Source: Patescibacteria group bacterium
Lineage (GTDB): Bacteria > Patescibacteriota > UBA1384 > GWA2-35-9 > JBASTP01
DNA length: 64,000 bases
Reading direction: 5' to 3'
Assembly: GCA_049274945.1 (NCBI GenBank)
Contig: JBASTP010000006.1
Coordinates: 96,529 to 160,528 of the forward strand
Positions 15,044-64,000 of the stretch are shown here, piece after piece. The translations under genes and the position numbers were made by a program. Numbering within the stretch: the first letter of the stretch is position 1; each line of letters opens with the position of its first letter. Under the pieces are notes generated by a model. The model saw only the letters and a program-made list of their open reading frames with translations, made no database searches and was not told the DNA's origin.

Positions 15044-15103
15044 TAATCAAATTATACTCCGAACGGATGGATTCGTTAATGAAAATATGATAAAATCTGA
15101 CTG

Positions 15104-15238: not shown

Positions 15239-15288
15239 CCAGGTCGGAGCTCGACGGGCTCTTTAAGCGGGTCAAGCCGGTCAAAACC

Positions 15289-15749: not shown

Positions 15750-15878
15750 ATAATGAAGTACCACAACCACAGATATTTGATCCACAGATAAACACAGATC
15801 AGGTATGCCCCAATCAGTGATTATCAGTGGATTAACATCAGTGGTTGTTTACCTACCTTTTTAAAATATAACCCGAAC

Positions 15879-20687: not shown

Positions 20688-20712
20688 TTTGAGGTTTGAG
20701 TTTGAGGTTTCG

Positions 20713-27605: not shown

Positions 27606-28826
27606 TTAGAGTTCTAACCACCATAGTTTGTCTTGAGCAATAAAGACTACATTTTTACCAGTTGCATCCATTCTAAATTGGTGTGCTCCTTCCGGCAGTT
27701 CGTTCGCCAACTTCAGGGCGAGAAAATTGTTGGTGTTAAGCTCATAGCTGCCAAATTGTTTACCCTGAGCGGAGTCGAAGGGTTCGAAGATTCCCGTGAT
27801 GCGATCCCCTGCGATTGCCAGGTCGCTAGCTTGGCCCTTAAATCCAAGCTTCAGCGCCTCCCCGAGTTTGATTGTGCCAAGTTCCTTGCTTGTACCGGTC
27901 GTTACTATTTGAAATGGTACTACCGTAAGCTCGCCATCGCGGGTTATAAGGAGCCGTTCGTTAGCCAGGAAAACACTGCTTGAGACGCCATCGGCAACTT
28001 TGCTGATTGTCTTGGTAGTGATGACGGCAAGGTAGGCGGCTTTGCCATCATTGACAAGGACGGTGTTACCGTCGGGTGAAATATTGAGCCGGGCACGATC
28101 GATCTCGACATCTTTGAGATCGATCAGCCGTTCAATTCGCTCCCGAGATCGCTCCGATCGCACCAGTGACCGTTCGGATGAAGGACTGTAGAGGTGGTAG
28201 ATCAGTTTGCCTTCCGGGTCGAACGCAAATGCGCGAGAATCACTATCGTATAGTTTGAACTCTTGGTGGAGCAGGTCGTACCGGGCAAAGTTATAAAGTC
28301 CTGAGCTGCCGGTACGATCGGCGAGCGTTGCTACGGAATAGTCAGGCGCAAACGCTACTTCGGTCAGCTCGCCCAGCACCGAGGGGGTAATCGGAATATT
28401 CTCAACTTTGGCACCTTCAGGGCCTTCCACAAACCGCAGCCGAAAGAGCGCTCTAGCTTGCCGGTTAAAGTAAAAAAATTGATCTCCCTCGGGATTGCTT
28501 GAGAGCAAATCAACCTGCTCTGCTACCACGAGTTTTGCTGAAGCCAGCTTCTTGAGCGAAGTCCGAATCCGTTTAATTTGCAGCGCCCGGATTTTTATGG
28601 TCTCCCGGTGCGGAACAAATCCTGGAGCGGTAACGGTAAGCTGGTAGCTGCCCGGCGTGAGCCGGCTCGTAAAGCCCACTTCTTTGCCATCGATTAGTAC
28701 CGTAGCGTTTTTTGGTTCAGGCAGCACAATAATGCTGCCAAGCCGATACGACACGGCAAACGCGATGGCGAGCGCGAGGAGGGGAATGGCGATAATCGCT
28801 ATCCAGAACCATATACGTGCCGTCAT
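27606..28826 (-). CDS. PEGA-domain membrane protein with beta-rich periplasmic domain
   Basis: N-terminal TM anchor. PEGA-like segment PKNATVLIDGKEVGFTSRLTPGSYQLTVTAPGFVPH. The remaining ~300 aa is beta-rich. ATGA overlap with the virB4 stop. Confidence 0.45.
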   Translation of the reverse strand: MTARIWFWIAIIAIPLLALAIAFAVSYRLGSIIVLPEPKNATVLIDGKEVGFTSRLTPGSYQLTVTAPGFVPHRETIKIRALQIKRIRTSLKKLASAKLVVAEQVDLLSSNPEGDQFFYFNRQARALFRLRFVEGPEGAKVENIPITPSVLGELTEVAFAPDYSVATLADRTGSSGLYNFARYDLLHQEFKLYDSDSRAFAFDPEGKLIYHLYSPSSERSLVRSERSRERIERLIDLKDVEIDRARLNISPDGNTVLVNDGKAAYLAVITTKTISKVADGVSSSVFLANERLLITRDGELTVVPFQIVTTGTSKELGTIKLGEALKLGFKGQASDLAIAGDRITGIFEPFDSAQGKQFGSYELNTNNFLALKLANELPEGAHQFRMDATGKNVVFIAQDKLWWLEL

Positions 28827-30613
28827 GGTTGGTTAGGTTCAGATTTCGGTTGCTTGGTTGCCTGCTCGATCGCTAACAGTTGCCGGGGGTCGGTGGTAAT
28901 GAGTTGGTCCTCGATGTACGAAGCAACCACTTTAATTGCGACATGGTTTTTGCCCGCAAAGAATAAGCCTTCACCGACATCGGCTTCAAGGAGCAGAAAC
29001 TTTTCACCCTCAGTGAGATTAAACACCTCGGCAATTTTGTCGATCGCCGCGGTTGATTGCTTAAGCAGCACCTGCATCGCCGCGTTATTCAAGACCGCGC
29101 GGCCGTACTTGGAATCGAGGAAATCCTCGGCATCTTGGGTGATTACGGTCATACCGAGGTAGTACTTGCGGGCGCGTTTAACCAGGGCGTGAACGAATTT
29201 GGCCGAGTCTTCGTGGGCCATCATTACCCAGGCCTCGTCCATAATCACGAGGCGCCGCCGCAGCTCGCGGCGGATCTTGCCCCAAATATAGGAGAGGATC
29301 AAATACATGCCGATCGGCCGAAGTTGCTCTTCCAAGTCGCGAATCGAAAACACCACCAAGCCGGCAGTCAATTCAAAGTTAGTTGGTTTGGTAAACAGGC
29401 CCGCGAACGTGCCCTCGGTGTATTTTTGCAACCGTTTTACCAGGCTCTCGGCGCCGGTCATATTGGCAAGCACCGAGATGAGGTCGGGTAAAAGCGGCGG
29501 CGGATTTTTGTGGCTGGCCGGATCGGCGGTAATGTCTTTGAGGGCATACACTTCGTAGAGCGCCTTATCGAGGATTCCCGATTCGTCGGGGGTTAAGCCG
29601 CCGACCATCAAACTTATCAAACCTTCAACCATGGCAATGGTTGAACGGAGTACGTTCTCACCGGTCTCACCTTCGGTGAGCGGCGGCAGGTCGAACGGAT
29701 TGATCCTTTGGGTCGAGTTGAGCGAAAGGTTCATAAACGAGCCGCCGACTGCCTCGGCAAGCGCCCGGTACTCGTTTTCCGGGTCAATGATAATCACGTC
29801 CGTGCCCAGCATCAGGTAGCGGAGCGCCTCGAGCTTGACCATGTAACTTTTGCCGGCGCCCGAGCGAGCAAACACAATCGAGTTAGCGTTTTCTAAATCG
29901 AACCGGTCAAAGAGAATCAAGCTGTTATTATGCCGGTTGATGCCGTACAGGATGCCTCGGTTCGAAGAGAGGGTTGCCGAGGTAAAGGGGAACGTGGTAG
30001 ACAGTGATGCCGTGTCGAGGTTGCGCAGGACCTGGAGCTCATCGGCGCCGAGCGGCAGCGAGGAATTGAAGCCCTGTTCCATTTGCAAGAACGCCTGCTT
30101 GGTGTAAATCAGCATGCCGCCAAACGCACTCTCAAGTTGTTTGTTCAGTGAATCGAGCTCGCCCATGCTCGTGGCATACACCGTGATGTAGAGTGAGAAG
30201 TGGAAGATCCGCGTCTCACCTTTTTGGAGCACCTCGCGCAGGGCATCAATGTCGCCGACCGCGGTTTCAAGCTCCGGGTCGCGCACCAAACCTTTTTCGT
30301 GCTGGATCGCTACTGAACTTTCAAGTTGGGTCTGGCGTCGGCGGAGCTGGCCCATCACCTCGCGAGTTTCAACCGGGTAGATAAACATCGAAATGTCCAT
30401 GGGGATGTCGAAGTTAATCACCGGCGAGAGCCAGTTGGTGTTGAGATAGCGCGGGTAGGTGAACACGAAAAATGTCTTCACGTAGAGGTTGTTAAGTTCA
30501 AGGTAGTTAGGCGTGATCGCAAAGGCCGCCGGCGAAATAATATCAAGGAGGGTGGTTTCGCCCGCGTGGAGCTCTTTTTCTAATGTAGTCTCGTGGGTGG
30601 TTTGTTTGGCCAT
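28823..30613 (-). CDS. virB4: VirB4/TrbE/PrgJ-family T4SS ATPase
   Basis: Walker A FARSGAGKSYMV, DPENEY motif, Walker B RRLVIMDEAWVMM, and TVITQDAEDF (sensor/arginine-finger region). 596 aa, consistent with the Gram-positive-type VirB4. Confidence 0.7.
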   Translation of the reverse strand: MAKQTTHETTLEKELHAGETTLLDIISPAAFAITPNYLELNNLYVKTFFVFTYPRYLNTNWLSPVINFDIPMDISMFIYPVETREVMGQLRRRQTQLESSVAIQHEKGLVRDPELETAVGDIDALREVLQKGETRIFHFSLYITVYATSMGELDSLNKQLESAFGGMLIYTKQAFLQMEQGFNSSLPLGADELQVLRNLDTASLSTTFPFTSATLSSNRGILYGINRHNNSLILFDRFDLENANSIVFARSGAGKSYMVKLEALRYLMLGTDVIIIDPENEYRALAEAVGGSFMNLSLNSTQRINPFDLPPLTEGETGENVLRSTIAMVEGLISLMVGGLTPDESGILDKALYEVYALKDITADPASHKNPPPLLPDLISVLANMTGAESLVKRLQKYTEGTFAGLFTKPTNFELTAGLVVFSIRDLEEQLRPIGMYLILSYIWGKIRRELRRRLVIMDEAWVMMAHEDSAKFVHALVKRARKYYLGMTVITQDAEDFLDSKYGRAVLNNAAMQVLLKQSTAAIDKIAEVFNLTEGEKFLLLEADVGEGLFFAGKNHVAIKVVASYIEDQLITTDPRQLLAIEQATKQPKSEPNQP

Positions 30614-31353: not shown

Positions 31354-31719
31354 TCAATGGATATCAAGCCGCTGGGCTACCCCGCGGATTATTCCTAAGT
31401 CAAACTTTTTCGGCACTGGCCGTACTACCGGTTGTTTGGTACCCGGTGCATCGGCAATGGTTACTACCGCGGTTGGCCCTTTGTGCCACACCCAGGTTTT
31501 CGGCGTCAGGTTGTAGTGGATGAGCGAGCCGAGAAACTTGGAAAATGGCTGGTCTTGGACTTTCACGAACGCGAATGCCAGCGCTAGTACCACCACCGGT
31601 ATGCCAAACGCGATAAAGAGGTACAGCGAGATTTTGAGCAGGGCATAGGCAAACATGCCGCCCGTAAGCAGGTACAAAAATTGGAACAGGGTGAGCGGCC
31701 CAAAGATTTTATCCTGCAT
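31354..31719 (-). CDS. VirB3/PrgI-like small two-TM protein (short form; 5' end uncertain)
   Basis: The track ORF extends to 31920. That would overlap the metK start codon and promoter head-on, so the ATG at 31719 (MQDKIFGPLTLFQFLYLLTGGMFAYALL...) is preferred. Two adjacent TM helices plus a short hydrophilic tail, immediately upstream of virB4. Confidence 0.35.
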   Translation of the reverse strand: MQDKIFGPLTLFQFLYLLTGGMFAYALLKISLYLFIAFGIPVVVLALAFAFVKVQDQPFSKFLGSLIHYNLTPKTWVWHKGPTAVVTIADAPGTKQPVVRPVPKKFDLGIIRGVAQRLDIH

Positions 31720-31833
31720 ATCGATATTTTGCGGAACCTTATACTGCGCCACGGCGAAAAAACCTCCTTCTCCCTCCTTGGGGAGAACTACCTGCCCCGC
31801 GTAGCCCAGAGCTTGGCGAAGGGCGTAGCGGGG

Positions 31834-31863
31834 TTGACTATTGAACCTAATTGTTTGTATTAT
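31834..31863 (+). promoter_or_regulatory. putative sigma70-type promoter of metK (possibly leaderless)
   Basis: TTGACT (31834-31839), an 18-nt spacer, then TATTAT (31858-31863). The metK ATG at 31871 lies only 7 nt downstream of the -10 element, and there is no SD. Confidence 0.3.
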
Positions 31864-31870
31864 ATCACCT

Positions 31871-33025
31871 ATGCATCGACTTTTCACTTCAGAGTCAGTC
31901 ACCGAAGGCCATCCGGACAAGATTTGCGACCAGATCAGTGATGCCGTTTACGACGAAATGCTTCGTCAGGACAAAAAAACTCATGCCGGCATTGAATGTT
32001 TTGTCACTACCGGGTTGGTAGTGGTTGGCGGGGAAGCCCGCACCAAGGGTTATGTGGACATTCATGAAATCGTGCGCCGCACCCTGAAGAGAATCGGCTA
32101 CGATAAACCCGAGTATGGTTTTTGCTACACCGACGTCGGGGTGATTTCCACGCTCCACGAGCAGTCGCCGGATATCGCCCAAGGGGTGGACAAAAACCGC
32201 GGAGAATTCAAAGAACAGGGGGCGGGTGATCAAGGCTTGATGTTTGGTTTTGCCTGTGATGAGACAAAAGAACTCATGCCGCTACCCATTACCCTGGCAC
32301 ACGGTTTGACTCGCCGATTGGCCCAAGTCCGTAAAAATGGCAAGTTGCCGTATCTGCGACCAGATGGCAAATCACAAGTGAGCGTTGAATATTTGGATAA
32401 CAAACCGAATCGGGTTACTGCAGTAGTGATCGCGGCCCATCATTCAGAAGGCGTGACGACCGAGAAATTGCGCGGTGATATTAAAAAATTTGTCATCAAA
32501 CCGGTATTAGGAAAATGGCTTTCGCCTCAAACCAAGATATTTATTAACGCTACTGGCAGATTTGTGCTCGGCGGCCCGCCGGCGGATGCTGGCTTGACTG
32601 GCCGGAAAATTATTGTTGACACCTACGGCGGCTATGCGCCGCACGGCGGCGGTTGTTTTTCAGGGAAATGCGTAACCAAGGTGGACCGAAGCGCGGCGTA
32701 CGCGGCCAGATACATTGCCAAAAATATCGTGGCAGCCGGGTTGGCAAAAAAATGCCTGGTGCAATTAGCCTACGCCATTGGCGTGGCTAAGCCAGTATCC
32801 GTGATGATTGATACCTACGGGACCGGTGCAGCGGCCGATGGGGATTTGGAAAAATCCGTGGAAAAGATTTTTCCGCTGAAGCCCGCTGATATTATCCGCG
32901 TGCTCGATCTGGAGCGACCTATATATGAACAAACCGCGGCGTACGGCCACTTCGGCCGCCCCGATTTAGATCTCCCGTGGGAAAAAACGAATAAGGTTAA
33001 TGAGCTCAGGCGAGCGATTCGTTAA
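31871..33025 (+). CDS. metK: S-adenosylmethionine synthetase
   Basis: [26 protein letters not shown]. Glycine-rich [17 protein letters not shown]-terminal GGGCFSGK. Confidence 0.9.
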
Positions 33026-44218: not shown

Positions 44219-44237
44219 CACTGTGATCACCTCTTTT

Positions 44238-48136: not shown

Positions 48137-51125
48137 TATAGAATTTGGTGGTCTTGATCAGGCAGTTACCGAACGAGAAAGACGAGAACAGGATGAAATG
48201 GAACTCCAGCGACTGCAGTACCAACAAGAACACGATCTCGCTATTGCCCGCCGCCGATTCAGCCGTGAGATTGATTTGAGTGAGGCTAAGGCACCAACGC
48301 CGGAAACCTCAGAAATTCCAGTAACTCCCCCGGCGCCCGAGGCCCCTGCTCGTCCCGAGCCCGCCAAAAAAACCGCCGAAAAGCTCCGACAAACCTTCGA
48401 AAGAGCATCAGCTAAACTGCTGCCCAGAACCGGCCAACGCCGCGTAGAACAGGTTAATGCCCTGCTCGCGCTCGCCAAGCGGCTTGGGATACGGCTCGGC
48501 CTCGCCGACATTTCGGAAAGGATTGCTTTTTTACGCGGTAAAGGGGAGATGCCCGCCCGCACCAAAGAACGATTGACCAAAGCACAAGAAGCCAAGCAAG
48601 CGGAGCGCGAAGAGGAGGCTCACGCAGAGGAACCGGAGCCTCTCACCACCGAAGAAGCCCGCGACGAATCATTCGGCCGGCTCGATTCCATGCGTGCTTA
48701 TGTTGAAAATCTCGCCGAGCGCAAACCGGAAAACCTGCAACGAGCGGATAGACTCTACGATTTGCTGCTCAAAACCAGGAACACCAAGTTCGACAAGTGG
48801 AAGGAAATTGCCGGTGTCGGCTTGTCGCTTGCCACACTCGCTACGCTGCCGGTTGGTGGTTCGGCCTCTTCGTTGGTAAAAGTAGGCCGCATGGCATTCG
48901 GTTCGCTCAACTACTCTACCATCGGGTTCCGCATGGGTTCTGAGTTGGGCTTGCGCGATGAAATAAACTGGAGACAAGAACGCTACGAGCAAATGATGAA
49001 AATGTCTCCAGATGATGAACATTATCTTGATTCTCTGCGAGCCGTTATTAATGATCAGGTCGCGCTGTACCGCGCCGGGGTGCGGTTTGACCGCTATGAA
49101 TCAGGCCAGAAAGGGCTAGCGATGTTCGGCAAAGCCGGTGAAGTGTTCCAAAAACTCAAACAAGGCAAAATTTTTGAATCCGGCAAAACGCTTTGGAATG
49201 CCGTAATCGAGGATAGGAAGGAACTCCTAAAACTTGGTGGGAAGATGGCGTTCTACAGCACGCCGCTTATTGCCGCGGCGCTCGCGCCAGGTTTGGCGCT
49301 ACCACTCTATGCTGGTACCACAGGCGCAAACATGGTGGAGCGCATTATGCGTTACCGTCAGTCAAGCGCCAAAGAGCAGTTTGAGAAAAATCGCAAAGAA
49401 CCCGATCCGCTCCTCAAACGAATTTTGGATCTCGCCGATCGGTATGACCAGGGATTCACGGCTAAGACTGCGACACTAGAGGGTATCGGTCCTGAGGAGC
49501 TCAGAGAAGCAATGCTCAATGCCCAGTCGCTCCTCAGTGAACGTAACGACGAACGCTACCTTGAACTCCAGCGATATCGTGGCGCTCAAGGTCTCAAGGC
49601 GGGCGCCATTCTTGGCCTCATTTCCGCCAGTTTCTATGGCATCATGAGCCTGCGCGGCCCAGCCGAGGCCGCTCGCCCGGGAGGAGCCGCTGGCGCTGGC
49701 GCAGCGGCAGGTGCTGCTGGTGGGGCAACCGAGCACGCCCACGGTGCCGGAAAATCAACTACACACCTCGAGCCTTCAAAATCTGGCGGCGCAGCCGCAC
49801 CGCTCCAAGAACGCTCTGGTACGCCACCAGATGCTCCTTCCGCGGGCGACGCTACACCTCCGCCCGATGCAGAATCTCAAGATGGAGGCACTGGAGAAAA
49901 AGCCGCTGATGCAGCCATACCAGGACAGTCTGAAACCAAGGCCCCCTCCACTGAAACCCCAGGTGGCAAAGCCACCATTGATATTCAAGAAAAACCCTGG
50001 CCAACCGATAAAGTGGAACAAGCCCGCCGGATCACCCAAATACTCGGCACCCGCCTGCGCGAAGCCGTGCCCGAAGACTTCAAGGGATTGGAAGACCTTA
50101 AATCTAATGAATCGCTTACCCGTTCCATTACCTGGGAGCACAATGGTGAGAAGTTTCTGGTCGGCGGCATTACCGACAAAAATGAGTTTTTTATAGACGG
50201 CCAGCGGTTCAAAATTTTTGATGACCACTACATTGAAGTACCGGTTGATCTTGATCCCAACGGCAAGATCGACGGCAACGATTTGATAAACGGCAAAGTG
50301 GCAACGATGAAGATTGATCTCAACACCGGCCGCTCGGTCGATGGCAAGTTCGCTGCGTGGGATAAGGATGTGTTCTTTCGGCGTGAGGGTGCAACTGGCA
50401 GCCACGAGGACATCCGCTTGGTCGCCTCGGATCGCGCGCGGCTGGATCAATATGGCGTTTCGATTGGCCGCGATAGGAGTGGCCAATTCCACATCACCCA
50501 CGAATCACTTGCCGGCCAGCCGGGGCTTAACGTTGAAAGTTTTAAGGCCTACCTGGGCACCGAGGCGGTGCCACTCAATAAGATAAATCAACCGCTCATT
50601 GATTACCGTTGGGAACTCGACCATTTTGTGTACCATAAGGATTCCGCCAACGGTTGGCTCGATCTTGCCCACCAACGGTCGGTGCTCGATTACAGCAATT
50701 TTGAAGGCAACGAGTATCAGGGCAAGGAACTTGAGCAGCGCCTGGCCGCCGAATTGGAAAAATCTGCCGGCAGTTCGGCCGATACTAGGGCGGCGCTCGA
50801 GCGAGGGGATAAAACGGTTATCGAGCAAGCCTACGATCGGGTAAAAACCACGGTGCAAACCAATTTGCCCGAGGCGCTCAAGACCAGCCACCGCAGCGAC
50901 TTTCTGGGTTGGCTTAAAGAGGGCGCTGGCAAGCTTAGCTCTGAGGCGCAGCGGTCAACGCGCGAAGCGCTTGAACGAGTTGCCAGTCAAAAGGTGGCAT
51001 TCCGGATTGATAAAAATTTCGATAGCACATATTGGCTTAAGATCGAGGGTGGCCAAAAGCCAATCCAGCTCGATCCCATTCCAGGATTCAAAGCATTCTT
51101 AGAACGGTTCAAAATAGGCGGATAA
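48123..51125 (+). CDS. hypothetical large protein (1000 aa) with a central Gly/Ala/Pro-rich linker
   Basis: Charged coiled-coil N-terminus. Two hydrophobic segments (~aa 370-400 and 490-510). Low-complexity linker (GGAAGAGAAAGAAGGATEH...PPDAPSAGDATPPPD). A ~380-aa C-terminal domain. Confidence 0.45.
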   Translation: MAMADIEFGGLDQAVTERERREQDEMELQRLQYQQEHDLAIARRRFSREIDLSEAKAPTPETSEIPVTPPAPEAPARPEPAKKTAEKLRQTFERASAKLLPRTGQRRVEQVNALLALAKRLGIRLGLADISERIAFLRGKGEMPARTKERLTKAQEAKQAEREEEAHAEEPEPLTTEEARDESFGRLDSMRAYVENLAERKPENLQRADRLYDLLLKTRNTKFDKWKEIAGVGLSLATLATLPVGGSASSLVKVGRMAFGSLNYSTIGFRMGSELGLRDEINWRQERYEQMMKMSPDDEHYLDSLRAVINDQVALYRAGVRFDRYESGQKGLAMFGKAGEVFQKLKQGKIFESGKTLWNAVIEDRKELLKLGGKMAFYSTPLIAAALAPGLALPLYAGTTGANMVERIMRYRQSSAKEQFEKNRKEPDPLLKRILDLADRYDQGFTAKTATLEGIGPEELREAMLNAQSLLSERNDERYLELQRYRGAQGLKAGAILGLISASFYGIMSLRGPAEAARPGGAAGAGAAAGAAGGATEHAHGAGKSTTHLEPSKSGGAAAPLQERSGTPPDAPSAGDATPPPDAESQDGGTGEKAADAAIPGQSETKAPSTETPGGKATIDIQEKPWPTDKVEQARRITQILGTRLREAVPEDFKGLEDLKSNESLTRSITWEHNGEKFLVGGITDKNEFFIDGQRFKIFDDHYIEVPVDLDPNGKIDGNDLINGKVATMKIDLNTGRSVDGKFAAWDKDVFFRREGATGSHEDIRLVASDRARLDQYGVSIGRDRSGQFHITHESLAGQPGLNVESFKAYLGTEAVPLNKINQPLIDYRWELDHFVYHKDSANGWLDLAHQRSVLDYSNFEGNEYQGKELEQRLAAELEKSAGSSADTRAALERGDKTVIEQAYDRVKTTVQTNLPEALKTSHRSDFLGWLKEGAGKLSSEAQRSTREALERVASQKVAFRIDKNFDSTYWLKIEGGQKPIQLDPIPGFKAFLERFKIGG

Positions 51126-55472: not shown

Positions 55473-56786
55473 ATGTATAAGATCAAAGACATCAAACTTG
55501 CCCCGCAAGGTGAGAAAAATATCGCTTGGGCCGGGGAGCAGATGGGCGCGCTAGAGCGCCTTAAGGAAGAACTTGCCAAGACCAAGCCATTTAAGAATCT
55601 GGTGATCGGCTGCGTGCTCCACGCCACCAAGGAAACCGCCAACCTGGTACGCACCCTCGAGGCGGCGGGCGCCTACGTGGTGCTCGGGCCCTCAAATCCG
55701 CTGTCGACTCAAGACGACGTGGTGGCGGCGCTGGCAAAATCAGGCACACCGGTGTTTGGTTGGAAAGGCATGAACCGTAAGGAGTATTACGATGCCCTGC
55801 TCTCGGTTGTAAACCACTTAAAAACTCAAAGCCTTAACGCCTCAAAGCCTTCGATTGTCACGATCGATGACGGGCTCGATTTGGTTTCGCTCATCCATTC
55901 CAAATATACTGAACTTATCCCCCACATTATCGGCGGCGCCGAGGAAACCACCACCGGCGTGAACCGGCTGCAGGCCATGGAGGCCGATGGCGCGCTCCGG
56001 TACCCCATGGTGGCGGTCAACGAGAGCCGCACCAAGCACCTGATGGATAACTACATCGGCACCGGCCAATCGACGATCGACGGCATTCTGCGGGCCACCG
56101 GCGGCGTGCTCCTGGCTGGCAAGGTGTTTGTGGTGGCTGGCTTTGGCGAGTGCGGCAAAGGCGTGGCGGCGCGAGCCGATGGCATGGGAGCCCGCGTCGT
56201 GGTGGTTGAGGTTGATCCCTTCCGGGCGCTCCAGGCTACTATGGAGGGCTACGAGGTACTGAAGATGAGCGAGGCTGCCAAAGTTGGTGACATTTTTGTA
56301 ACGGTAACCGGCGGCAAGCACATTATTTCAGCCGAACATTTAGCGAACATGCCAGACGGTGCGATTGTCGCGAATTCTGGCCACTTTGATATTGAGATCG
56401 ACGTGGCCGGCTTGAAAAAGATGGCAAAGAAAATTGTCGAGATCCGTTCGCAACTCACCGAATATACCCTCAAAGCCTCAAAGACTCAAAGCCTCAAAGA
56501 CTCAAAGACTCAAAGACTCTATCTCCTCGGCGAAGGCCGGCTCGTTAACCTGGCGGCGGCCGAGGGCCACCCTTCAACCATTATGGCCATGAGTTTTGCC
56601 AATCAGACGCTGGCCGTTGATTTTCTCAACAGGAACCAGGGCAAGCTAGAACCAAAAGTATATGTTCTACCGAAAGAGGTTGACGATCGAATCGCCAAAC
56701 TTCAGCTTCAGGCCATGGGCATAATGATTGACGCGCAGAGTGATGAGCAAAAAAAGTACTCCGAGTCCTGGCAGGAAGGGACCTAG
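55473..56786 (+). CDS. ahcY: adenosylhomocysteinase (S-adenosyl-L-homocysteine hydrolase)
   Basis: Conserved N-terminus (IKDIKLAPQGEKNIAWAGEQM), NAD-binding GFGECGKGVAARADGMGARVVVVEVDP, and HFDIEIDV. Carries an in-frame repeat-encoded insertion (see repeat feature). Confidence 0.85.
   Translation: MYKIKDIKLAPQGEKNIAWAGEQMGALERLKEELAKTKPFKNLVIGCVLHATKETANLVRTLEAAGAYVVLGPSNPLSTQDDVVAALAKSGTPVFGWKGMNRKEYYDALLSVVNHLKTQSLNASKPSIVTIDDGLDLVSLIHSKYTELIPHIIGGAEETTTGVNRLQAMEADGALRYPMVAVNESRTKHLMDNYIGTGQSTIDGILRATGGVLLAGKVFVVAGFGECGKGVAARADGMGARVVVVEVDPFRALQATMEGYEVLKMSEAAKVGDIFVTVTGGKHIISAEHLANMPDGAIVANSGHFDIEIDVAGLKKMAKKIVEIRSQLTEYTLKASKTQSLKDSKTQRLYLLGEGRLVNLAAAEGHPSTIMAMSFANQTLAVDFLNRNQGKLEPKVYVLPKEVDDRIAKLQLQAMGIMIDAQSDEQKKYSESWQEGT
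56472..56519 (+). repeat. tandem 8-nt repeat (CAAAG[C/A]CT x6) inside ahcY
   Basis: tcAAAGCCTCAAAGACTCAAAGCCTCAAAGACTCAAAGACTCAAAGACTct encodes LKASKTQSLKDSKTQR. A related pair CTCAAAGCCT...CTCAAAGCCT sits at ~55828-55858 in the same gene. Confidence 0.7.
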
Positions 56787-59700
56787 GGCGCCGGCGCAGG
56801 AGGAGGAGTGGCAGGTGCAGGAGTTGGGGGTGCCGGTTTTTCTGTTAGTTCGTTAATCAGGGCGGCTTGGAAGAGCCGCAGCTGGTAGTATAGCCATTTT
56901 GGGCGGTCTTCCTGCCCCATTTCATACTCGGGCGGGTGGCCGACAATCATTGGCATGGTTTGGGTTGGGCTCACGCGCACATTGAGTACTCGGCGCTCTC
57001 GTTTGGTTGCACACTGGCGCCATAGGTCGGTTTCCTCCCACTGCGATTCAGGCACCTCGTCCAGATACTTGAACTTTTTCTTGATGTCCAGATATTCCTG
57101 GTCAGTCAACTCTCGTTTGGTCTGGCCGGTTTCATCCTTATAGTGATAGTCGAACCGCGGCATGGGCTTGTCTTCCTTTTGGATTGGGGTGAACTTTTTG
57201 AGCGCTTGTTCTACCTCGCCGCGGACGTTTTTAAGATGCTCGATCCTAATAGCCTCTGCGTCAGCATTATTTTCTGGCTCGGGCAGCTTAGTCTTGATTG
57301 GTTTAATATCAGCTAACCAATCCTCAAGATCCCACATCACATTCAGTAATACGCGTTTTTGTTCATAAAAGGTGCGGATTTTTGCAAAATCCTGAAAAAG
57401 CTTCTGGTAGTGGCGATTGTGGGCATTAGTGTAGGCAGGTTCGTCTTGCGGGTTTGCCACGGTCGGCCGCTGAAGTTTAAAAATAGTATCGGTTAGGGTG
57501 TGAAGATCGTCCGGGTCGTCCAATAATAATCGCTTGATTTCCTGCGGGTTTTTCTTGATTATGCGTTTGAGTTCGGCGTTAATTGCCAGCTGCTCAATGC
57601 CGTCTTTTTTATCATTCCCACCCTCAACCAATTTTTCCCTGAGGTTTGCCTCGCCGTGTTCAACCGTGGCAAGCTTTTTAGCGGTTTCTTCCGGGTCATC
57701 CTCGGCGCTCACGATTGGATTCTTGGCAACAATCTCATTCGCTGCCTCGGCATCCGCGTCGTACTTAGCCGCTTCTTGCCTTTGCTTCACGGCCGCGAGT
57801 TCTTTTTCTTTGAAAAAATGGATGTGGTGGAGGAATCGGTCATAGGCCGGGATCGGGGTACCGCCTTTGGCCTTGTGCGCTTCATATTCTTCAGCCTGTT
57901 TAGAATAGTGATCAACCGCGCGTTTTTGAGCAAGTTTAAAGTGCTCTGAAGAAAAGGGGTCGCGAATGTCACCAGAAGTTCCTACTTTGTATTTGATGCC
58001 ATGATATTCTAGTTTTGGATTGTTGATTAACTGACTCATCGCCACGAGCCGGGCGATCATGAGTACCTGGTCGGGGTCGAGTTTGAACCACCCTTGGCTT
58101 TTGTCCTCTTTGGATCGGTGAAAGTTGGCGGTTTGGCTGACCTGCTCGACAAAGTCTTTGTCCATTAAGTTGAGAAAATTGTTGGTTTCCTCTTGGTATT
58201 GGTCGCGGTGGCCCTGCCACCCTTTGAGCTTAAATGGTTCGTCATCAGGATTGCCAAAGGTTTCATCTATCTCAAACTGGCCCCGCGTGCCGTCAGCCCG
58301 CTCACATTCCATCCACTCGTAGGCCTCCTGGGCAACGGCCAGCAGATCACGCATTGATCGCTTATCAATTTCATCAAGCGCGGCCTCTTCCCAAACTTCC
58401 CGAGAAACCCGTTTGATCCGTCTCCGGCCGCCGGCAATGCGCGCTTGGATCGGCGCGTACTCGCCTGGCTTGGTGCCGTGGCGCTTGCCGACGTGCGAGA
58501 TCCGGAGACACTGCACGATGAAGCTGTATTTTTCGAGGGTGATCTCTTCACCGTTGGTTTTGCGGTAGAGCGGATCGAACTGGTAGAGGAACATGTGGTA
58601 AACCCACCAGCGCGAGTCGCCGGTGTGGGCCATCGATTTAATCAGGGTGCGTGCGCCGAACTCGTCGTGGTTTTCAAAGAAGGTTTTGAGCCGTTTGTGC
58701 CGGTCGGTAACGTGCTCGTCGCGGGCCAGCACTTTGCTGACTTCTTTGTCTTCGAACTCCACCAAGGTTCGTTCATACCAGTCGGTTTGTTTGTAGGGCA
58801 CCAGTTCTCGAAGCGCCATCAACATGCGCTCCGAGGCTTCTTCTCTGAAGGCGCTGATTTTTTGCATAAATTTGATCGATCGGCCCCACAACCCAATATA
58901 GTTATTGCCGGCGAACTCAAATTTGGTGTCGAGTTTTTCGGTCCTGGTGTCGGTGTTGAGTCGCTTACGGAGGTCATCGGACCCGGTCGCGGTTTTCAGA
59001 TTCTCGAACACTTTTTTGACTGCATTATAGCCTTCCGGTGCCAGGCGTTGACACTCGGTTGGGTCGGTTAAATAGAGCGCAACAAAATCTTTCCACTCCG
59101 GCGCCCGCTGCTCAAGCACCCGGACAGACCTGGTGTATTCTTTCCATGCGGTTGGTTCATGGAGCAGGGCGCCGACCATGCGTCCGAGCTGGAACATTAC
59201 CTTATCAACGCGGGGCACCTGCTTGCCGCCTTGTTTTTCTGTCATCAGCAGGCCCGGCCCGAATCGGAACACAATCTTACCTGTATCGGCTACTTTCAGC
59301 TCGTCGTCTTTGAGATCCGGGTCGTATTCGATCTTGCAGTGCTCCTCAAAGAAAGCGCGCAGGTGGGCCGGGATTACCCGTTTGATGAGGAGCCTGATTT
59401 CATCGTCGTCTAAAAATGGATCTTCGGCCCCCAGGCGCGCTTCGGCTGAGGTTTGAAACATTTCCCGAGTGAGTTTATCAAGCTCCTTTTGTTGGTCTTC
59501 TATGTCTTCGTCTGAAGCGTTGATTTGGCGGAGTCTCTCGAGCTTCGAAACTTCTTTGTCGTAGGCCTCCGTCTTTTCTTTGAGGATACGGTATTTCTCC
59601 ATTCGGTTTGGAGGGGTGAAGCCCTTGATTTCAACCTTAGGGGCGGTTTTCAGTTCTTCCTTAAACTCGTTGGAATGGCGATGGTATTTGATTTCTGCCA

Positions 59701-59917
59701 GTTTCTGCTTCCGGTCTGCTTCGTTGAGTGTTTGTCCTTTTTCTTGTTCAATCTTGCGAATCGCATCGCGTTGCGCGTGGATTTCTTTCATAAACCTACC
59801 AAACGCATTCATCGCGGTTTCACGCGAAGACTTACCCGCCACTCGCAGCGGTGATCGTTCTACCCAGGCGGGTTGATTTTCAGATTCTTCCTTGTGGGCT
59901 AACGCTCCTTGACTCAT
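56783..59917 (-). CDS. hypothetical large hydrophilic protein (1044 aa) with Pro-rich C-terminus
   Basis: No TM segments or catalytic motifs recognised. Lys/Glu-rich. C-terminal KPAPPTPAPATPPPAPAP. Last gene of the VirB6-like operon. Confidence 0.45.
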   Translation of the reverse strand: MSQGALAHKEESENQPAWVERSPLRVAGKSSRETAMNAFGRFMKEIHAQRDAIRKIEQEKGQTLNEADRKQKLAEIKYHRHSNEFKEELKTAPKVEIKGFTPPNRMEKYRILKEKTEAYDKEVSKLERLRQINASDEDIEDQQKELDKLTREMFQTSAEARLGAEDPFLDDDEIRLLIKRVIPAHLRAFFEEHCKIEYDPDLKDDELKVADTGKIVFRFGPGLLMTEKQGGKQVPRVDKVMFQLGRMVGALLHEPTAWKEYTRSVRVLEQRAPEWKDFVALYLTDPTECQRLAPEGYNAVKKVFENLKTATGSDDLRKRLNTDTRTEKLDTKFEFAGNNYIGLWGRSIKFMQKISAFREEASERMLMALRELVPYKQTDWYERTLVEFEDKEVSKVLARDEHVTDRHKRLKTFFENHDEFGARTLIKSMAHTGDSRWWVYHMFLYQFDPLYRKTNGEEITLEKYSFIVQCLRISHVGKRHGTKPGEYAPIQARIAGGRRRIKRVSREVWEEAALDEIDKRSMRDLLAVAQEAYEWMECERADGTRGQFEIDETFGNPDDEPFKLKGWQGHRDQYQEETNNFLNLMDKDFVEQVSQTANFHRSKEDKSQGWFKLDPDQVLMIARLVAMSQLINNPKLEYHGIKYKVGTSGDIRDPFSSEHFKLAQKRAVDHYSKQAEEYEAHKAKGGTPIPAYDRFLHHIHFFKEKELAAVKQRQEAAKYDADAEAANEIVAKNPIVSAEDDPEETAKKLATVEHGEANLREKLVEGGNDKKDGIEQLAINAELKRIIKKNPQEIKRLLLDDPDDLHTLTDTIFKLQRPTVANPQDEPAYTNAHNRHYQKLFQDFAKIRTFYEQKRVLLNVMWDLEDWLADIKPIKTKLPEPENNADAEAIRIEHLKNVRGEVEQALKKFTPIQKEDKPMPRFDYHYKDETGQTKRELTDQEYLDIKKKFKYLDEVPESQWEETDLWRQCATKRERRVLNVRVSPTQTMPMIVGHPPEYEMGQEDRPKWLYYQLRLFQAALINELTEKPAPPTPAPATPPPAPAP

Positions 59918-59953
59918 GATCGAGATCTACTCCTAGTATTAAAATATACCATA

Positions 59954-60226
59954 TTATTTCCTTTTTGTCAATTGACGGCTGTTTTTTGCGATATCGCCAG
60001 TTTCGAGAAATTCCTTAGCGACGTAGCGCGTGTATAGGATCCAATCGACTATGGGATTGATCGGTTCGAGTCCCGAGCTCGTCAGTTTTGGGGCAAGGCG
60101 TATACTGCGCAGCTGTTTCAGAACTTCTGGGGCCAAATCGGCAACCCGCTGCCCGAGGCTTTGTTCGAGGATTGGGGCAATCCGGTCAATCTTCTCAACT
60201 TCAGCGGTGATTGGGTGGAGTGCCAT
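59954..60226 (-). CDS. hypothetical small protein
   Basis: 90 aa. Its start abuts the stop of the VirB6-like gene with a 0-nt gap. Confidence 0.35.
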   Translation of the reverse strand: MALHPITAEVEKIDRIAPILEQSLGQRVADLAPEVLKQLRSIRLAPKLTSSGLEPINPIVDWILYTRYVAKEFLETGDIAKNSRQLTKRK

Positions 60227-63175
60227 TTACGATTGCCTCCTGAAACGGTTCAAGAAGGAGCGCGCCTGCTTATCTGGTTCCCGGAACCGGTTACTGAGAG
60301 TCGTTCCCCGAGACAACTTGGTTTTAGCATCGAGTAAGCGGTGCAGTTCTTGGTCGATGTTCTGTGAGACGTTCGATTGTTGGAGCCGAACTTTAATTTT
60401 TGGCATCAGGTCAATATTGATGTTCTCCCCGGCTTTTTTGATTTCATCTTCGATGATGCTTCCGAAGTGTGTGGTACCGATGGCTTGCCGGATTGCTGCT
60501 TCGGCGCGGCTTGTTTCAAACCGGAAGTGGTCCATAATAAAGGGTTGCGTGTTGATAGTGTGCGCTACTGCGCGATCAGCGTCATTCCCGGGAACCCCCG
60601 TGCCGTATGATCCGGTGGCAAGGTGCTCGATCACACGGTTGACGGTTGGCGCGTTTTTGTGAATGTCAAGTTGGCCTCGAAATTTATTGACCATTTCCGT
60701 CGCGTACTGTTTCATTCCTTGATCGCGGTGTTGCAAGCCACTCACCTCAAAGGCCCGGAGCGCGCCAAGCTGCCTTGGATTTAAGGCGGCTTGTGCAGGT
60801 GTCCCACGCAAATTAATTTGAGATTCAACTCCATCGATATTAATCGATCCAACACCAAGATCTGCAATCTGAGCACTGAATTCGTCCTTCGCTTGTTCTG
60901 AAACCTCCACTCCTTGAACCTGTGCGGTGACCGCAAACTGGTCGAGCGCTTGTTTGATTGCGGGATTTTTATCGACTACCGCTTGGCTCACCATATCGCG
61001 GAGCGCGCGAGCTCTGAGTTCATTGTGTGCGTTGGTGGCAATATCACCATTGCTGTCGCGCTCGAATTGATTGAGTAGCTGGTTCGCCGCAGTTTCGAGT
61101 TGACCAGTAGTTTTATTGCCCTGGAGCCGTTTCCAGAGTGCACCGGCGTTCCGTTCTGCGTCACCGCCGTGAGCTGGATTGACGACGAAGTTACTGTTCT
61201 TCATCGCCTCTTTTTGGGCACTCGACAACGCTTGTTGGACCGTGGCATCTTGTAATAATTTCTTATTGCCCGCGATTTCTTCGAAATCTTTCGTGACATC
61301 TTGTCCTTGCATGGCCTTGGCAATGAGGTACGGGGCAGCCTTGCTGTGGTCTTTGTCCTGGATGGCTTCTGCCAAGCCGCTGGTTACGGCGTCGTCCGAG
61401 AGTGCGGCGATCTGCTGGGCTTCGGACGCAATTTGTTTGTTAACCGCCTGCTTGTGGCGCTCGCCGGTGAGCATGATGTTGATCCCTCGCTTGACTCGGC
61501 CGCCGAATTCCCTGGGCCGGAGTATTCCCATGGCGCCGGAAGCAACCATTTCACGAACATCCTCGCCGGCGCCCGAAGATTCGGCGACGTGGCGCTGGTA
61601 GTACCGGTCGGCATTGGCACCCCATCCTCGGTAGAGTCCGCCAAGCGTGATTGGCCTGCCGCTAATCCCTTTCGAAATCTTGCCAGAGACTACATCCGAG
61701 GTCCTGCCGTACCAGCGCGCGCCAAAGCCGCCGGCTTGGCGGAGCGGCTTGCCCAGGTACTTGGCAACATTTCCGGTGATTACCCCGCCCATCTTAAACG
61801 GCAGTGAGATGGCCAGGTAGAGCATGGTGAGCGAAATTAAGTAGATGCCAAATTCGAATCCGCCGCCAAAGGCCTCGGTAAACTGAATCCCCAGCCAGAT
61901 CATAAAAAAGGCGATCGGGCCCATAAACGCCCAGCGGGCCAGCTGGGTCCACCACTGGCGAAACAGCACCTGGCCGGCCGGCAGGGCAAAGGCAATAAAG
62001 GCGAGCGGCGATACCGCCGCGAGCGCCAAAATCACATAGGTGCGGACGTAAAAGAGCACTGCGAGGATTAAAATGAAAATGCTCGGCACGATAATCGCCA
62101 GGGCCGCAAGCAGTACTGCTCCGAGGACGAGGTAGCCACCGGCGACGTAGATCGCGCTAACGAATACCACTGATTTGATTGCACTCTCGTATACCCCGCC
62201 GCCTTGATTAGTGGAAAATATTCCAATCAACTCGCCGAGCTTGTCTCTGCCGCCGTGGATGAAGGTCTTGAGCAAATTGTTGACCAGCACCTCTGAGCCA
62301 CCTTGGTTATTGACGATCGCGACGACCCCGATGTTAGCGACGTCCACCACCATGCGGGTAATGAAGAGCGAAAAGTTGGCGAGAATGATGGCGATGATTA
62401 CGTTCGGCAACGCTTTTTTAACGCCGTAGGTATCTATCTGGACACTGAAGATGGTGGCAAACCCCATCACCAAGAAGACAAGAATCACGATGCCGTTGGT
62501 GATATTGAGCATGGTGCGCCAAATGCGGCCGATCGCTTCGCCCTCTGGTTTGCGGGGGTTGAGCCGGTCGGCGAGCGTGGTAATTTCTGACGGCGGCGTT
62601 ATCTGCCCGATGGTTTTACCGCCACTGCTCGCGCTCGGATTCACCGCAGGCTGGTTAGGTGATTGGACAGGGCCAACTCCGCCGGTACCTGCGGCGGCAC
62701 CACCTACCGGTCGCCTGGGCTGCGTTGGGGCTGGCGCGCAATTACCGGTAGTGGTTGGCTGGCCAGTATCGGGGTGGTTAATGCCCGGTAGCCGAGGAAA
62801 GCGGAGTGTTACGGCGTTTGAACCGTTGATGTTGAAGCGTCGCGGCGGGATCGAAACTGGATCAGTGGCAAAGCCGTGTGATCTGGCAGATAAGCGCACA
62901 AGCTCTAGGTTATCGGGATCCAACCGCTCCTCATTCACCGAAAATCTGAATCCACCCCTTGGACCAGTCGAGGTGGTTTGGTCCAGGTGCCCGGCCGGTT
63001 TGCCAGAAACGCTGCCGTTCCACTCGATCCGGAGCGTCACCTCTGCTTGCGCCACGGCGCAGCTATTATTGCCCAGCGCCGTTCCGGCAATCGTCGCGGC
63101 AGCGTAAGCCGGCGCGGCCATTAAAAATTGCGAAGCAGCGAGTGCCAGAGCCAGTTGTGCAAATCGTCGGTTCAT
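60227..63175 (-). CDS. VirB6/TrbL-like polytopic membrane protein with Pro/Gly-rich extracellular N-domain and long cytoplasmic C-domain
   Basis: The ATG at 63175 (MNRRFAQLALALAASQFLMAAPAYAA signal) overlaps the upstream stop (ATGA). ~330-aa extracytoplasmic region with a PTQPRRPVGGAAAGTGGVGPVQSPNQPAVNP linker. At least six TM helices (…GIVILVFLVMGFATIF… to …MGPIAFFMIWLGIQF…). ~480-aa hydrophilic C-terminus. Confidence 0.45.
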   Translation of the reverse strand: MNRRFAQLALALAASQFLMAAPAYAAATIAGTALGNNSCAVAQAEVTLRIEWNGSVSGKPAGHLDQTTSTGPRGGFRFSVNEERLDPDNLELVRLSARSHGFATDPVSIPPRRFNINGSNAVTLRFPRLPGINHPDTGQPTTTGNCAPAPTQPRRPVGGAAAGTGGVGPVQSPNQPAVNPSASSGGKTIGQITPPSEITTLADRLNPRKPEGEAIGRIWRTMLNITNGIVILVFLVMGFATIFSVQIDTYGVKKALPNVIIAIILANFSLFITRMVVDVANIGVVAIVNNQGGSEVLVNNLLKTFIHGGRDKLGELIGIFSTNQGGGVYESAIKSVVFVSAIYVAGGYLVLGAVLLAALAIIVPSIFILILAVLFYVRTYVILALAAVSPLAFIAFALPAGQVLFRQWWTQLARWAFMGPIAFFMIWLGIQFTEAFGGGFEFGIYLISLTMLYLAISLPFKMGGVITGNVAKYLGKPLRQAGGFGARWYGRTSDVVSGKISKGISGRPITLGGLYRGWGANADRYYQRHVAESSGAGEDVREMVASGAMGILRPREFGGRVKRGINIMLTGERHKQAVNKQIASEAQQIAALSDDAVTSGLAEAIQDKDHSKAAPYLIAKAMQGQDVTKDFEEIAGNKKLLQDATVQQALSSAQKEAMKNSNFVVNPAHGGDAERNAGALWKRLQGNKTTGQLETAANQLLNQFERDSNGDIATNAHNELRARALRDMVSQAVVDKNPAIKQALDQFAVTAQVQGVEVSEQAKDEFSAQIADLGVGSINIDGVESQINLRGTPAQAALNPRQLGALRAFEVSGLQHRDQGMKQYATEMVNKFRGQLDIHKNAPTVNRVIEHLATGSYGTGVPGNDADRAVAHTINTQPFIMDHFRFETSRAEAAIRQAIGTTHFGSIIEDEIKKAGENINIDLMPKIKVRLQQSNVSQNIDQELHRLLDAKTKLSRGTTLSNRFREPDKQARSFLNRFRRQS

Positions 63176-63933
63176 TGGAGTGTGGCGGCTTTGAGCAACA
63201 AACTGAACGAGAGATTGGCAAAACTCACTGCCACTCCCATGACTAAATCGGCCACACCGCAAAGGGCGCCACCCAGTCCGTAGGGTAGCTTGTTCAATTC
63301 TGGCGGACAGGTGCTACCACCCCCGGTGCTCGCATCAAGGTTCTGGTTGCTTAAAATCCGTATTGCTCCCAGTTCATCGGGGTCTTGGCGGGTGGCGGCA
63401 GTATTTTGTGTCCTCTTATCGTTGCTTGTAAACGAACTATCATAGGGGCTTTTACCGCCGTACAATTTTTTTATGAATTCAATAAAGGAGTCGCGTTGAA
63501 AAACGACAGAGCCAAATTGATCTTGTTCGGAGTCGGAGATTGCAATCTTATTGCCTTGAACACGATTAACGCTCACAGTTAGGACCGCTGCTTGACCACC
63601 GATATCCCCTAGTACTGAGCCAACAATAGGAATGGTATTGATAGTGCTATCGCTCAAGCGAAGCGCGAGATTACAGTGGTTGCCTGGTGGGTCAGGGAAA
63701 AAATAGAAGTAATTTGCGGTCGCTACCGGGCTCAAGATTTGTCCTGCCCGAGTTGTTTCTGTGTAAATCATGTAGTACTTGTAACGAAAGCGAAGAGCAG
63801 GTCTTCTTAGGTTGGTTGAAGCGGGAGCTGGCGGGATGTCTATATATGCGCCGCGTGTGTCAAGCTGAATTGGACGAGTGCCCAGAAATGTGCTATTCCC
63901 TGAATCGAAATACTTCAACGAGTCAATGTACAC
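63172..63933 (-). CDS. hypothetical protein (5' end may extend beyond the window)
   Basis: The track start is a GTG at 63933. The frame stays open to the window edge. Gly/Ser-rich region and a hydrophobic C-terminus (GVADLVMGVAVSFANLSFSLLL). Confidence 0.3.
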   Translation of the reverse strand: MYIDSLKYFDSGNSTFLGTRPIQLDTRGAYIDIPPAPASTNLRRPALRFRYKYYMIYTETTRAGQILSPVATANYFYFFPDPPGNHCNLALRLSDSTINTIPIVGSVLGDIGGQAAVLTVSVNRVQGNKIAISDSEQDQFGSVVFQRDSFIEFIKKLYGGKSPYDSSFTSNDKRTQNTAATRQDPDELGAIRILSNQNLDASTGGGSTCPPELNKLPYGLGGALCGVADLVMGVAVSFANLSFSLLLKAATLQ

Positions 63934-64000
63934 TTGATGTCTATGCGCGCAACCGGCTGGTCCTAACTCGCTCCCTGCTTCAGGATTCGTTAAGGCCCAG

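Follow-up and report, generated by a model that had tools for sequence, protein, structure and literature searches.

A divergent extended VirB6-like gene, detached from the virB4 operon and followed by two unannotated gene families, in a Patescibacteria chromosome

The stretch of DNA analyzed here (64,000 nucleotides, referred to below as the window) comes from a metagenome-assembled genome of the Patescibacteria, or candidate phyla radiation (CPR), and covers positions 96,529 to 160,528 of contig JBASTP010000006.1 (GenBank assembly GCA_049274945.1). At its far end lie four co-oriented open reading frames (ORFs) on the minus strand, which encode, in order, an exported protein of 470 amino acids (aa), a membrane protein of 982 aa, a 90-aa protein and a hydrophilic protein of 1044 aa. 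The second of these is identified, from profile and fold comparisons, as a divergent member of the VirB6/TrbL proteins of type IV secretion systems (T4SS). The operon probably provides the VirB6 subunit of a chromosomal, monoderm-type T4SS, similar to the mating pair formation (MPF)-FATA class, that has become detached from the prgI-trsD-like-virB4 operon found elsewhere in the window, and it would include accessory partners of that subunit.

The four genes are tightly packed. An ATGA overlap joins the stop codon of the 470-aa gene to the ATG of the 982-aa gene, there is no gap between the latter and the 90-aa gene, 36 nt separate the 90-aa and 1044-aa genes, and the end of the last gene overlaps the convergent ahcY by 4 nt. 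Comparison was made with 23 loci from genome collections (L002-L024) and nine from metagenomes, 18–19 of which have enough downstream sequence to be informative. The gene order and the tight spacing recur in other metagenomes at 77% (L025), 52% (L001, Candidatus Berkelbacteria) and ~49% (L026/L027) identity, and on this comparative evidence the four ORFs are real genes and not chance ORFs. Pfam and NCBIfam scans returned nothing significant for any of the four proteins, and none of them contains a Walker A or HExxH motif. The tight, co-oriented linkage of genes without annotation was part of the original prediction from this DNA and agrees with these coordinates and scans. So does the start that it proposed for the membrane protein, the ATG at 63175, which is used in the NCBI record (P0001, 982 aa, 100% identity) and in a 77%-identical homologue (P0002).

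Table 1. Features of the VirB6-like operon and of the main T4SS operon, in window coordinates
Feature	Position	Strand	Basis
3' 275 codons of the 470-aa secreted/surface-anchored protein (P0008, WAP74_02830)	63172..64000 (gene continues, >64000)	-	frame open to window end
Extended VirB6/TrbL-like protein, 982 aa: signal peptide, ectodomain, linker, VirB6 core, tail	60227..63175	-	profile, fold, synteny
Signal-peptide-like N-terminus, aa 1-25, MNRRFAQLALALAASQFLMAAPAYA followed by A (…APAYA, then AAT)	63101..63175	-	read from sequence
Putative extracytoplasmic globular domain, aa 26-129	62789..63100	-	inferred from homologue P0009
Pro/Gly/Thr-rich linker, aa 130-215	62531..62788	-	composition 17% P, 15% G, 12% T
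VirB6/TrbL membrane core, aa 216-465, 5-7 hydrophobic helices	61781..62530	-	hydropathy, family profile, AlphaFold2
Most conserved family motif, aa 385-409, LAAVSPLAFIAFALPAGQVLFRQWW, aligns to TrwI LAGLGPLFILALIWQPTHRFFDQWA	61949..62023	-	invariant columns and HMMER alignment to 7o3v_F
Hydrophilic C-terminal tail, aa 466-982, basic at start	60230..61780	-	pI 9.55; first 90 aa pI 10.5
90-aa soluble protein (s90), motif P.(I/L)T.SGLEP(V/I)N	59954..60226	-	no Pfam/NCBIfam match
1044-aa hydrophilic protein	56783..59917	-	no signal peptide, transmembrane segment, Walker A or HExxH
~100-aa domain in the 1044-aa protein, aa ~405-519, …GARTLIKSMAHTGDSRWWVYHMFLYQFDPLYRKTNGEEIT…	58361..58705	-	family HMM matches VirB6 tails
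PrgI/VirB3-like gene, first of main T4SS operon	31354..31920	-	Pfam PrgI 5.8e-10
VirB4-like ATPase of main operon	28823..30613	-	Pfam TraG P-loop 3.6e-26, AAA_10

The 982-aa protein has a signal-peptide-like segment, a Pro/Gly linker, hydrophobic helices and a hydrophilic tail, in the order originally predicted (Table 1). The sizes given with that prediction do not hold. Counted from the ATG, ~190 aa (aa 26-215) and not ~330 aa precede the first transmembrane helix on the extracytoplasmic side, and the cytoplasmic side assigned to the tail is a deduction, taken up below. The globular domain at aa 26-129 is confined to the closest relatives and is probably a beta-sandwich of the CarboxypepD_reg/PEGA-like type, as suggested by a weak CarboxypepD_reg match, below the cut-off (E 3e-4), at the equivalent position of the homologue P0009. 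Both hydropathy and the family-wide profile place 5-7 hydrophobic segments within aa ~218-462, and AlphaFold2 predicts long helices over the same span. The loop between helices 2 and 3 (aa ~285-345) is variable and of low charge; topology models of VirB6 likewise have a variable extracytoplasmic loop after the second helix. The stretch that follows the last core helix is strongly basic, with an isoelectric point (pI) of 10.5. A local jackhmmer search divides the ~510-aa tail in two, a proximal ~250 aa common to the tails of other family members and a distal half restricted to close relatives. The positive-inside rule, together with a domain that the tails have in common with a protein that has no signal peptide, suggests that the tail is cytoplasmic.

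What identifies the core as that of a VirB6 protein? The assignment rests on the agreement of four independent lines: sequence, fold, synteny and complementarity with the main T4SS operon. A profile of 30 membrane-core sequences with the window protein first (A5) had a single match in the PDB, to TrwI, the VirB6 of R388 (7o3v_F, E 1.6e-5), with an alignment of 150 positions that takes in the conserved SPLAF…FKQWW. The invariant motif of the family, LAAVSPLAF…LP.GQ.LF.QWW, is the part that aligns to the TrwI segment given in Table 1. A shallow profile of five sequences (A2) found only noise in the PDB (S100-P, E 0.8). When a core profile from five close homologues was run against 1.84 billion cluster representatives, 17,490 proteins were matched at E<=1e-3 and 5,917 at E<=1e-10, with the core always lying between variable N- and C-terminal regions. 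Pfam TrbL (PF04610) was matched by 16 of 56 relatives (best 8.7e-09) and TrbL_4 by one of the 56. One relative (P0005) matches NCBIfam NF046089, the CD3337/EF1877 mobilome membrane protein family, at 1.9e-05; the Berkelbacteria orthologue (P0003) has a weak precomputed TrbL_3 match only.

The fold points the same way. The AlphaFold2 model of the core has a mean predicted local distance difference test score (pLDDT) of 77 and a predicted template-modeling score (pTM) of 0.67. A Foldseek search with it returned TrwI chains as all of the top four PDB matches, with probability 1.00 and template-modeling (TM) scores of 0.46-0.51. TrwI and DotA are both classed as VirB6 in a review of T4SS nomenclature (PMC12857230). 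The window protein combines a predicted VirB6 fold, at least five hydrophobic helices, profile homology to a characterized VirB6 and the genetic association of its family with virB3/virB4, and it lacks a direct match to a curated TrbL/VirB6 family model. The TrwI profile match, the VirB6/DotA fold, the TrbL matches of the relatives and the synteny together bear out the earlier suggestion of a VirB6/TrbL/PrgH-type component. The PF04610 search proposed with that suggestion gave a divided result, nothing for the window protein itself and a match for the 16 relatives. By these profile and model comparisons the 982-aa protein is a divergent, extended VirB6/TrbL homologue.

Alternatively, the polytopic protein might be a transporter, a permease or a Wzy-like oligosaccharide polymerase with no part in a T4SS. 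The NCBI name of the homologue P0004 is 'oligosaccharide repeat unit polymerase', and the missing Pfam TrbL match would fit. Yet the only sequence and fold matches obtained are VirB6-class proteins, and the homologues are syntenic with prgI-virB4, so that we give this explanation almost no credence. A match to a transporter or ABC permease family was what the original prediction named as its own refutation, and none appeared. No family of the Wzy, transporter or permease kind was matched by the window protein, by P0004, by eight relatives searched in NCBIfam or by 56 relatives searched in Pfam, and that reading is effectively refuted.

The architecture places the protein among the extended VirB6 proteins, a category of Alvarez-Martinez & Christie (2009) defined, as quoted in PMC12857230, by five or more hydrophobic helices and a large C-proximal hydrophilic domain. 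The window protein has such a core, a tail of ~510 aa and, in addition, ~190 aa of ectodomain and linker. It resembles extended VirB6 proteins such as DotA of the Legionella Dot/Icm system in architecture, with no sequence similarity in the extensions. The RvhB6 paralogues of the Rickettsiales and TraG of the F plasmid are further examples of this category. The comparison with TrwI, and with PF04610, is closer in the helical membrane core, where homology is detected at the profile level as described above. At 982 aa the window protein is, however, three times longer than TrwI (342 aa), to which it adds a predicted cleavable signal peptide, a predicted beta-sandwich ectodomain on a Pro/Gly stalk and the tail; moreover, unlike that of TrwI, its host is a monoderm without an outer membrane. 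The exported protein encoded just upstream recalls virB5/trwJ before virB6/trwI in position only, since it shows no similarity to VirB5.

That upstream gene is only partly contained in the window. The frame stays open as far as base 63999, and the full 470-aa product was recovered at 100% identity (P0008), with the start and a signal-peptide-like segment ~585 nt beyond the window end; the earlier reading of '253 aa from GTG 63933' was an artefact of the window edge. Hydropathy shows a C-terminal hydrophobic helix at aa 436-464 of P0008, for which there is no Pfam match. The sole homologue detected is a 607-aa protein at the equivalent position of metagenome locus L026 (E 7e-08); the genes upstream of virB6 at the 23 loci from genome collections yielded none. 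Upstream exported proteins with a C-terminal helix are encoded in several lineages.

Two further families accompany the VirB6-like gene. The s90 family, to which the basic (pI 9.45) 90-aa protein belongs, has seven detected members, each encoded by the gene that directly follows a VirB6-like gene. Hydropathy shows no hydrophobic segment in the 1044-aa protein, in agreement with its original description as soluble; its N-terminus resembles a coiled coil, its core is conserved (aa ~170-700) and its C-terminal end is rich in Pro and Ala. Its homologues, of ~1000 aa, were found only at L001, L025, L027, L013 and L031, each as the large gene after a small one, at 20-65% identity. These five loci have the complete module of VirB6-like, s90-family and ~1000-aa genes, with overlaps or with gaps of 0-36 nt. 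At L028 the VirB6-like and s90-like genes are followed by a different protein. Neither accessory family was seen away from VirB6-like genes in the searches made. L013 and L031 are loci of the Saccharibacteria type, still linked to leuS, and the module therefore spans distant Patescibacterial lineages. At L031 (10698-11123) a gene for a 23S rRNA-intervening sequence protein (PF05635, 1.4e-19) has been inserted between the s90-like and ~1000-aa genes.

Other searches with these proteins were negative. The 1044-aa protein found only coiled-coil noise among PDB sequences, plasmids searched by tblastn with the VirB6-like and 1044-aa proteins yielded nothing, and a metagenome scan with the 1044-aa family gave 383 pattern matches, none of which was confirmed. 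The 114-aa and 947-aa genes of L002 occupy equivalent positions, but no similarity between them and the s90 and ~1000-aa families could be detected. No relationship was found by hhalign between the 1044-aa family and the ~210-300-aa proteins, including a family with a HExxH motif, that follow VirB6 in canonical loci. At several loci a member of this ~300-aa family with conserved HExxH is encoded next after the VirB6-like gene, and ahead of prgI where there is one (L014:10601-11497, L017:6548-7498, L018:5039-5956, L019:12583-13467, L020:12621-13535, L021:7941-8849 and L028:13713-14972). These loci are mostly from Saccharibacteria, two are labelled Berkelbacteria, and the L028 member has a weak SprT-like match. 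The family may be a T4SS-associated metalloprotease and is unrelated to the 1044-aa protein.

Is the 1044-aa protein carried by the secretion system, or is it a part of the machine? A domain of ~100 aa bears on this question. The hidden Markov model (HMM) of the ~1000-aa family matches the tails of VirB6-like proteins in P0013 (aa 507-599, 3.7e-08), P0018 (4.3e-05) and P0026 (1.2e-03). The search was made in a local database of about 680 sequences, and a five-fold shuffled copy used as a control gave a best E of 0.18. The reciprocal iterative search, with the tail segment of P0013 as its starting point, finds all the ~1000-aa members (aa 415-519 in the window protein) and further VirB6 tails; in its first, non-iterated round the L031 protein is found at 2.7e-05 and the window protein at 6.6e-03. 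The pattern …A..L[IL]…A..G……[LY]L.K.D..Y.KT.G..I[ST]… is common to both sides of the alignment. Our reading is that some lineages have this domain fused to VirB6 and others encode it separately beside VirB6, the classical signature of proteins that work together. To our knowledge, an extension domain held in common with a separately encoded soluble protein has not been described for the known extended VirB6 systems. Because of this domain the comparison favors a cytoplasmic VirB6 partner or scaffold over a secreted effector as the role of the 1044-aa protein, and its presence in a protein without a signal peptide would also place the VirB6 tails in the cytoplasm.

Chaperone-effector gene pairs are established for type III secretion systems and T4SS, and the VirB6 assignment could be right while the 90-aa and 1044-aa genes form such a pair. 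The large protein would then be a secreted T4SS substrate and the small one its escort, encoded beside the channel gene for co-regulation. The 1044-aa protein has the profile typical of an effector, being highly charged, without a signal peptide or transmembrane segment, fast-evolving and narrowly distributed, and a small ORF coupled upstream of a large gene resembles the known pairs. The core domain of the large protein is, however, homologous to the tail domain of membrane-anchored VirB6 proteins in other lineages, which speaks for a machine part over cargo. Furthermore, the small protein is basic, unlike the classical acidic chaperones, and its gene is coupled to the VirB6 gene and not, given the 36-nt gap, to the large one. 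We consider such a pair unlikely, and prefer accessory partners of VirB6.

The VirB4 operon of what is probably the same system is elsewhere in the window. It comprises prgI, a 249-aa gene, virB4 and genes for a PEGA protein, a C39-like peptidase, a 1904-aa protein and a T4SS_pilin-domain ORF. The 249-aa gene lies between prgI and virB4 as in TrsC-D-E of pGO1, so that its likeness to TrsD is one of position. None of the proteins of this operon has five or more hydrophobic helices, metK occupies the place before prgI where virB6 would be expected, and the A5 core HMM found no second VirB6-like match in any of the six frames of the 64 kb, as anticipated by the earlier observation that the main operon lacks a VirB6 component. 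The two operons are on the same strand, ~28 kb apart, with housekeeping genes between them, and are not adjacent. The window VirB4 has 59-64% identity to VirB4 proteins whose genes adjoin VirB6-like genes in other genomes, and this ATPase is presumed to be the functional partner of the VirB6-like protein.

In 11-12 of the 18-19 informative loci the two halves are together: the VirB6-like gene is followed, in the same orientation, by one variable gene, prgI, a homologue of the 249-aa gene, virB4 and homologues of the PEGA and 1904-aa proteins. In seven, neither prgI nor virB4 occurs in the 5-8 kb downstream, and a survey of Patescibacterial VirB6 homologues placed 304 of 480 within ±20 genes of virB4 (PMC12102498). 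The separation, which was at first called unusual for a T4SS locus, is thus not unusual, and applies to about a third of Patescibacterial virB6 genes.

A second landmark is leuS, present a few genes and several kb upstream of the VirB6-like gene in >15 loci among L002-L033, with or without virB4 downstream. This anchor spans Berkelbacteria, Saccharibacteria and other Patescibacteria (e.g. L002:5224-7497, L013:1198-3330). Following leuS is a small tetratricopeptide repeat (TPR) gene in L002 and, in other loci, a gene of similar size for a small protein with one transmembrane segment. The window ends before the leuS position of its own VirB6 locus. The leuS anchor was not found in PMC12102498 ('leucyl' has 0 occurrences there). 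The simplest history is one ancestral locus, with leuS and tpr followed by the genes for the exported protein and VirB6, a variable gene, prgI, the trsD-like gene, virB4 and those after it, that has been broken repeatedly.

Two genes of the methyl cycle bracket the ~23 kb between the T4SS halves: metK (31841-33025, plus strand), which abuts prgI, and ahcY (55473-56786, plus strand), which overlaps the end of the 1044-aa gene. The bracket may mark the rearrangement that split the locus. Also between the halves, in an operon of unannotated genes, is a gene for an Hsp70/actin-fold protein of 586 aa (42470-44230, minus strand); in a complete Berkelbacteria chromosome a homologue is encoded ~7 kb downstream of the VirB6-like gene (L006:19047-20747). 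Adjacent ORFs of 465 aa and 1000 aa (46739-51125, plus strand) between the T4SS operons have no Pfam match and no hydrophobic segment. The main operon itself is flanked by dnaA (10111-11451, minus strand), a YidC-type insertase (15879-16700, plus strand) and a T2SSE/PilB-type ATPase (17921-19441, plus strand), with the T4SS_pilin-domain ORF (PF18895, 4.7e-6) at 19701-20924 on the minus strand. Given dnaA and the pilin ORF, the main operon is origin-proximal and accompanied by a VirB2-like pilin; a dnaA-proximal T4SS with a VirB2-like pilin has been described for Patescibacteria (PMC12102498). Near dnaA the GC content falls to 0.38-0.43 (12000-16000) from about 0.54 elsewhere. This stretch has genes for a methyltransferase, a DUF6190 protein, a DHDPS-family protein and an aminotransferase, and may be a horizontally acquired island.

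Detachment raises another possibility, that the module is a stand-alone membrane device, a channel or surface-display system derived from VirB6, with partners of its own and independent of the VirB4 operon, its presence beside a T4SS being a matter of coincidence or paralogy. The seven loci without prgI or virB4 nearby would be compatible with this, as would the leuS linkage that is kept even where virB4 is absent, and the placement of module-type VirB6-like genes in two neighboring clusters of a rough neighbor-joining tree. However, VirB6 is a core T4SS subunit (PMC12857230), and the VirB4 operon of the window has no other polytopic candidate for it. In most genomes virB6 and virB4 share the leuS-linked position, and the simplest explanation is therefore that a rearrangement split a single system. 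No genome was seen with the module and without virB4, a comparison made at the level of loci and not of whole genomes. An independent device is therefore improbable in our estimation, more so than an effector and its chaperone.

Against the interpretation of the operon as a detached VirB6 subunit with cytoplasmic partners there are several points to be weighed. No Pfam or NCBIfam family is matched by the window protein even at E<=1, the closest homologues (P0002-P0005) likewise gave no TrbL match when rescanned, and the homology to VirB6 is at the profile level and transitive. The Foldseek E-values are weak (0.04-0.09, with TM about 0.5), the number of membrane spans is ambiguous, from 5 to 7, and the side of the tail was read from its charge and the common domain. 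The VirB6 tail of the window protein itself aligns to the flanks of that domain without the central segment, and hhalign of the tail family against the ~1000-aa family gives the same register at an E of 0.24, which is not significant. The AlphaFold2 model of the 1044-aa protein, from an alignment of two sequences, is unusable (pLDDT 38.7). Lastly, the finding of a single VirB6 covers 64 kb of a 214-kb contig, so that a VirB6 paralogue elsewhere in the genome is possible. With these points taken into account we still regard the detached VirB6 subunit as the probable explanation, well ahead of the others considered.

How might such a subunit work? In the arrangement that we propose, in which we infer the oligomeric state, the tail topology, the physical interactions and the cargo, a Sec signal peptide would export a small beta-sandwich domain on a Pro/Gly/Thr stalk, and this ectodomain, judging from the architecture, could reach into or through the wall. 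The VirB6/TrbL helical core would insert in the cytoplasmic membrane and, by analogy with TrwI and DotA (PMC12857230), oligomerize as a central platform or protochannel with the VirB3/VirB4 motor docking beneath it. The long basic tail would stay in the cytoplasm. The upstream 470-aa protein, translationally coupled and with its C-terminal helix, is a probable extracellular partner of the channel. Operon conservation and the common domain suggest that the 90-aa and 1044-aa proteins are cytoplasmic accessories bound at the VirB6 tail, where the 1044-aa protein would supply in trans the domain that other lineages fuse to it. A more far-reaching version is possible, and we put it forward tentatively, as something less likely than otherwise: that the 90-aa and ~1000-aa proteins are new, lineage-restricted T4SS components forming a docking or substrate-recruitment platform at the cytoplasmic face of the channel, which replaces the coupling protein that is mostly lacking, and that the upstream exported protein is the functional counterpart of VirB5/IcmX at its outer face.

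The system to which the operon would belong is not a new one. It agrees with the T4SS described for this phylum (Quinonero-Coronel et al. 2025, PMC12102498) in its PrgI/VirB3, its gene in the TrsD position, its VirB4, its T4SS_pilin protein and its proximity to dnaA. No relaxase or type IV coupling protein (T4CP) domain was present among the window ORFs scanned, as in the MPF-FATA-like loci of Patescibacteria. In that survey most genomes with VirB4 had no detected VirB6, a gap that was put down to extreme divergence; here, by comparison, the VirB6 family is very large, with the 17,490 representatives noted above. PrgH of pCF10, the CD3337/EF1877 proteins and Orf15 of Tn916 have the monoderm context in common with it. 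In pCF10 the order prgH-prgI-prgJ corresponds to virB6, virB3 and virB4, as in the canonical Patescibacterial loci (PMC12857230). The window locus differs from these PrgH-type elements in being chromosomal and linked to housekeeping genes instead of carried by a mobile element, without a nearby relaxase or coupling protein and without plasmid matches, and in having its VirB6-like gene detached from prgI.

What, then, do these genes add? We see the protein as a divergent extended VirB6 that belongs to a Patescibacterial T4SS known from earlier work, and the general picture of the T4SS is unchanged by our findings. What is new is modest: how large and how poorly annotated the family is, its anchoring to leuS, the existence of two partner families and the link through the tail domain. 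We know of no previous description of the s90 and ~1000-aa families or of the tail-domain link, although the survey of Patescibacterial T4SS was not searched for them. Patescibacteria rely on T4SS for their epibiotic lifestyle as far as one genetic study so far indicates, in which the T4SS was essential for the epibiotic growth of Ca. Southlakia epibionticum (Wang et al. 2023, as cited in PMC12102498). For such bacteria a large and divergent VirB6 family matters, one whose member in the window is missed by Pfam and NCBIfam and of which Pfam TrbL catches 16 of 56 relatives. The leuS-linked home locus makes the VirB6-like gene easy to find, and the two unannotated families that accompany the detached VirB6 offer specific candidates for components on the cytoplasmic side.

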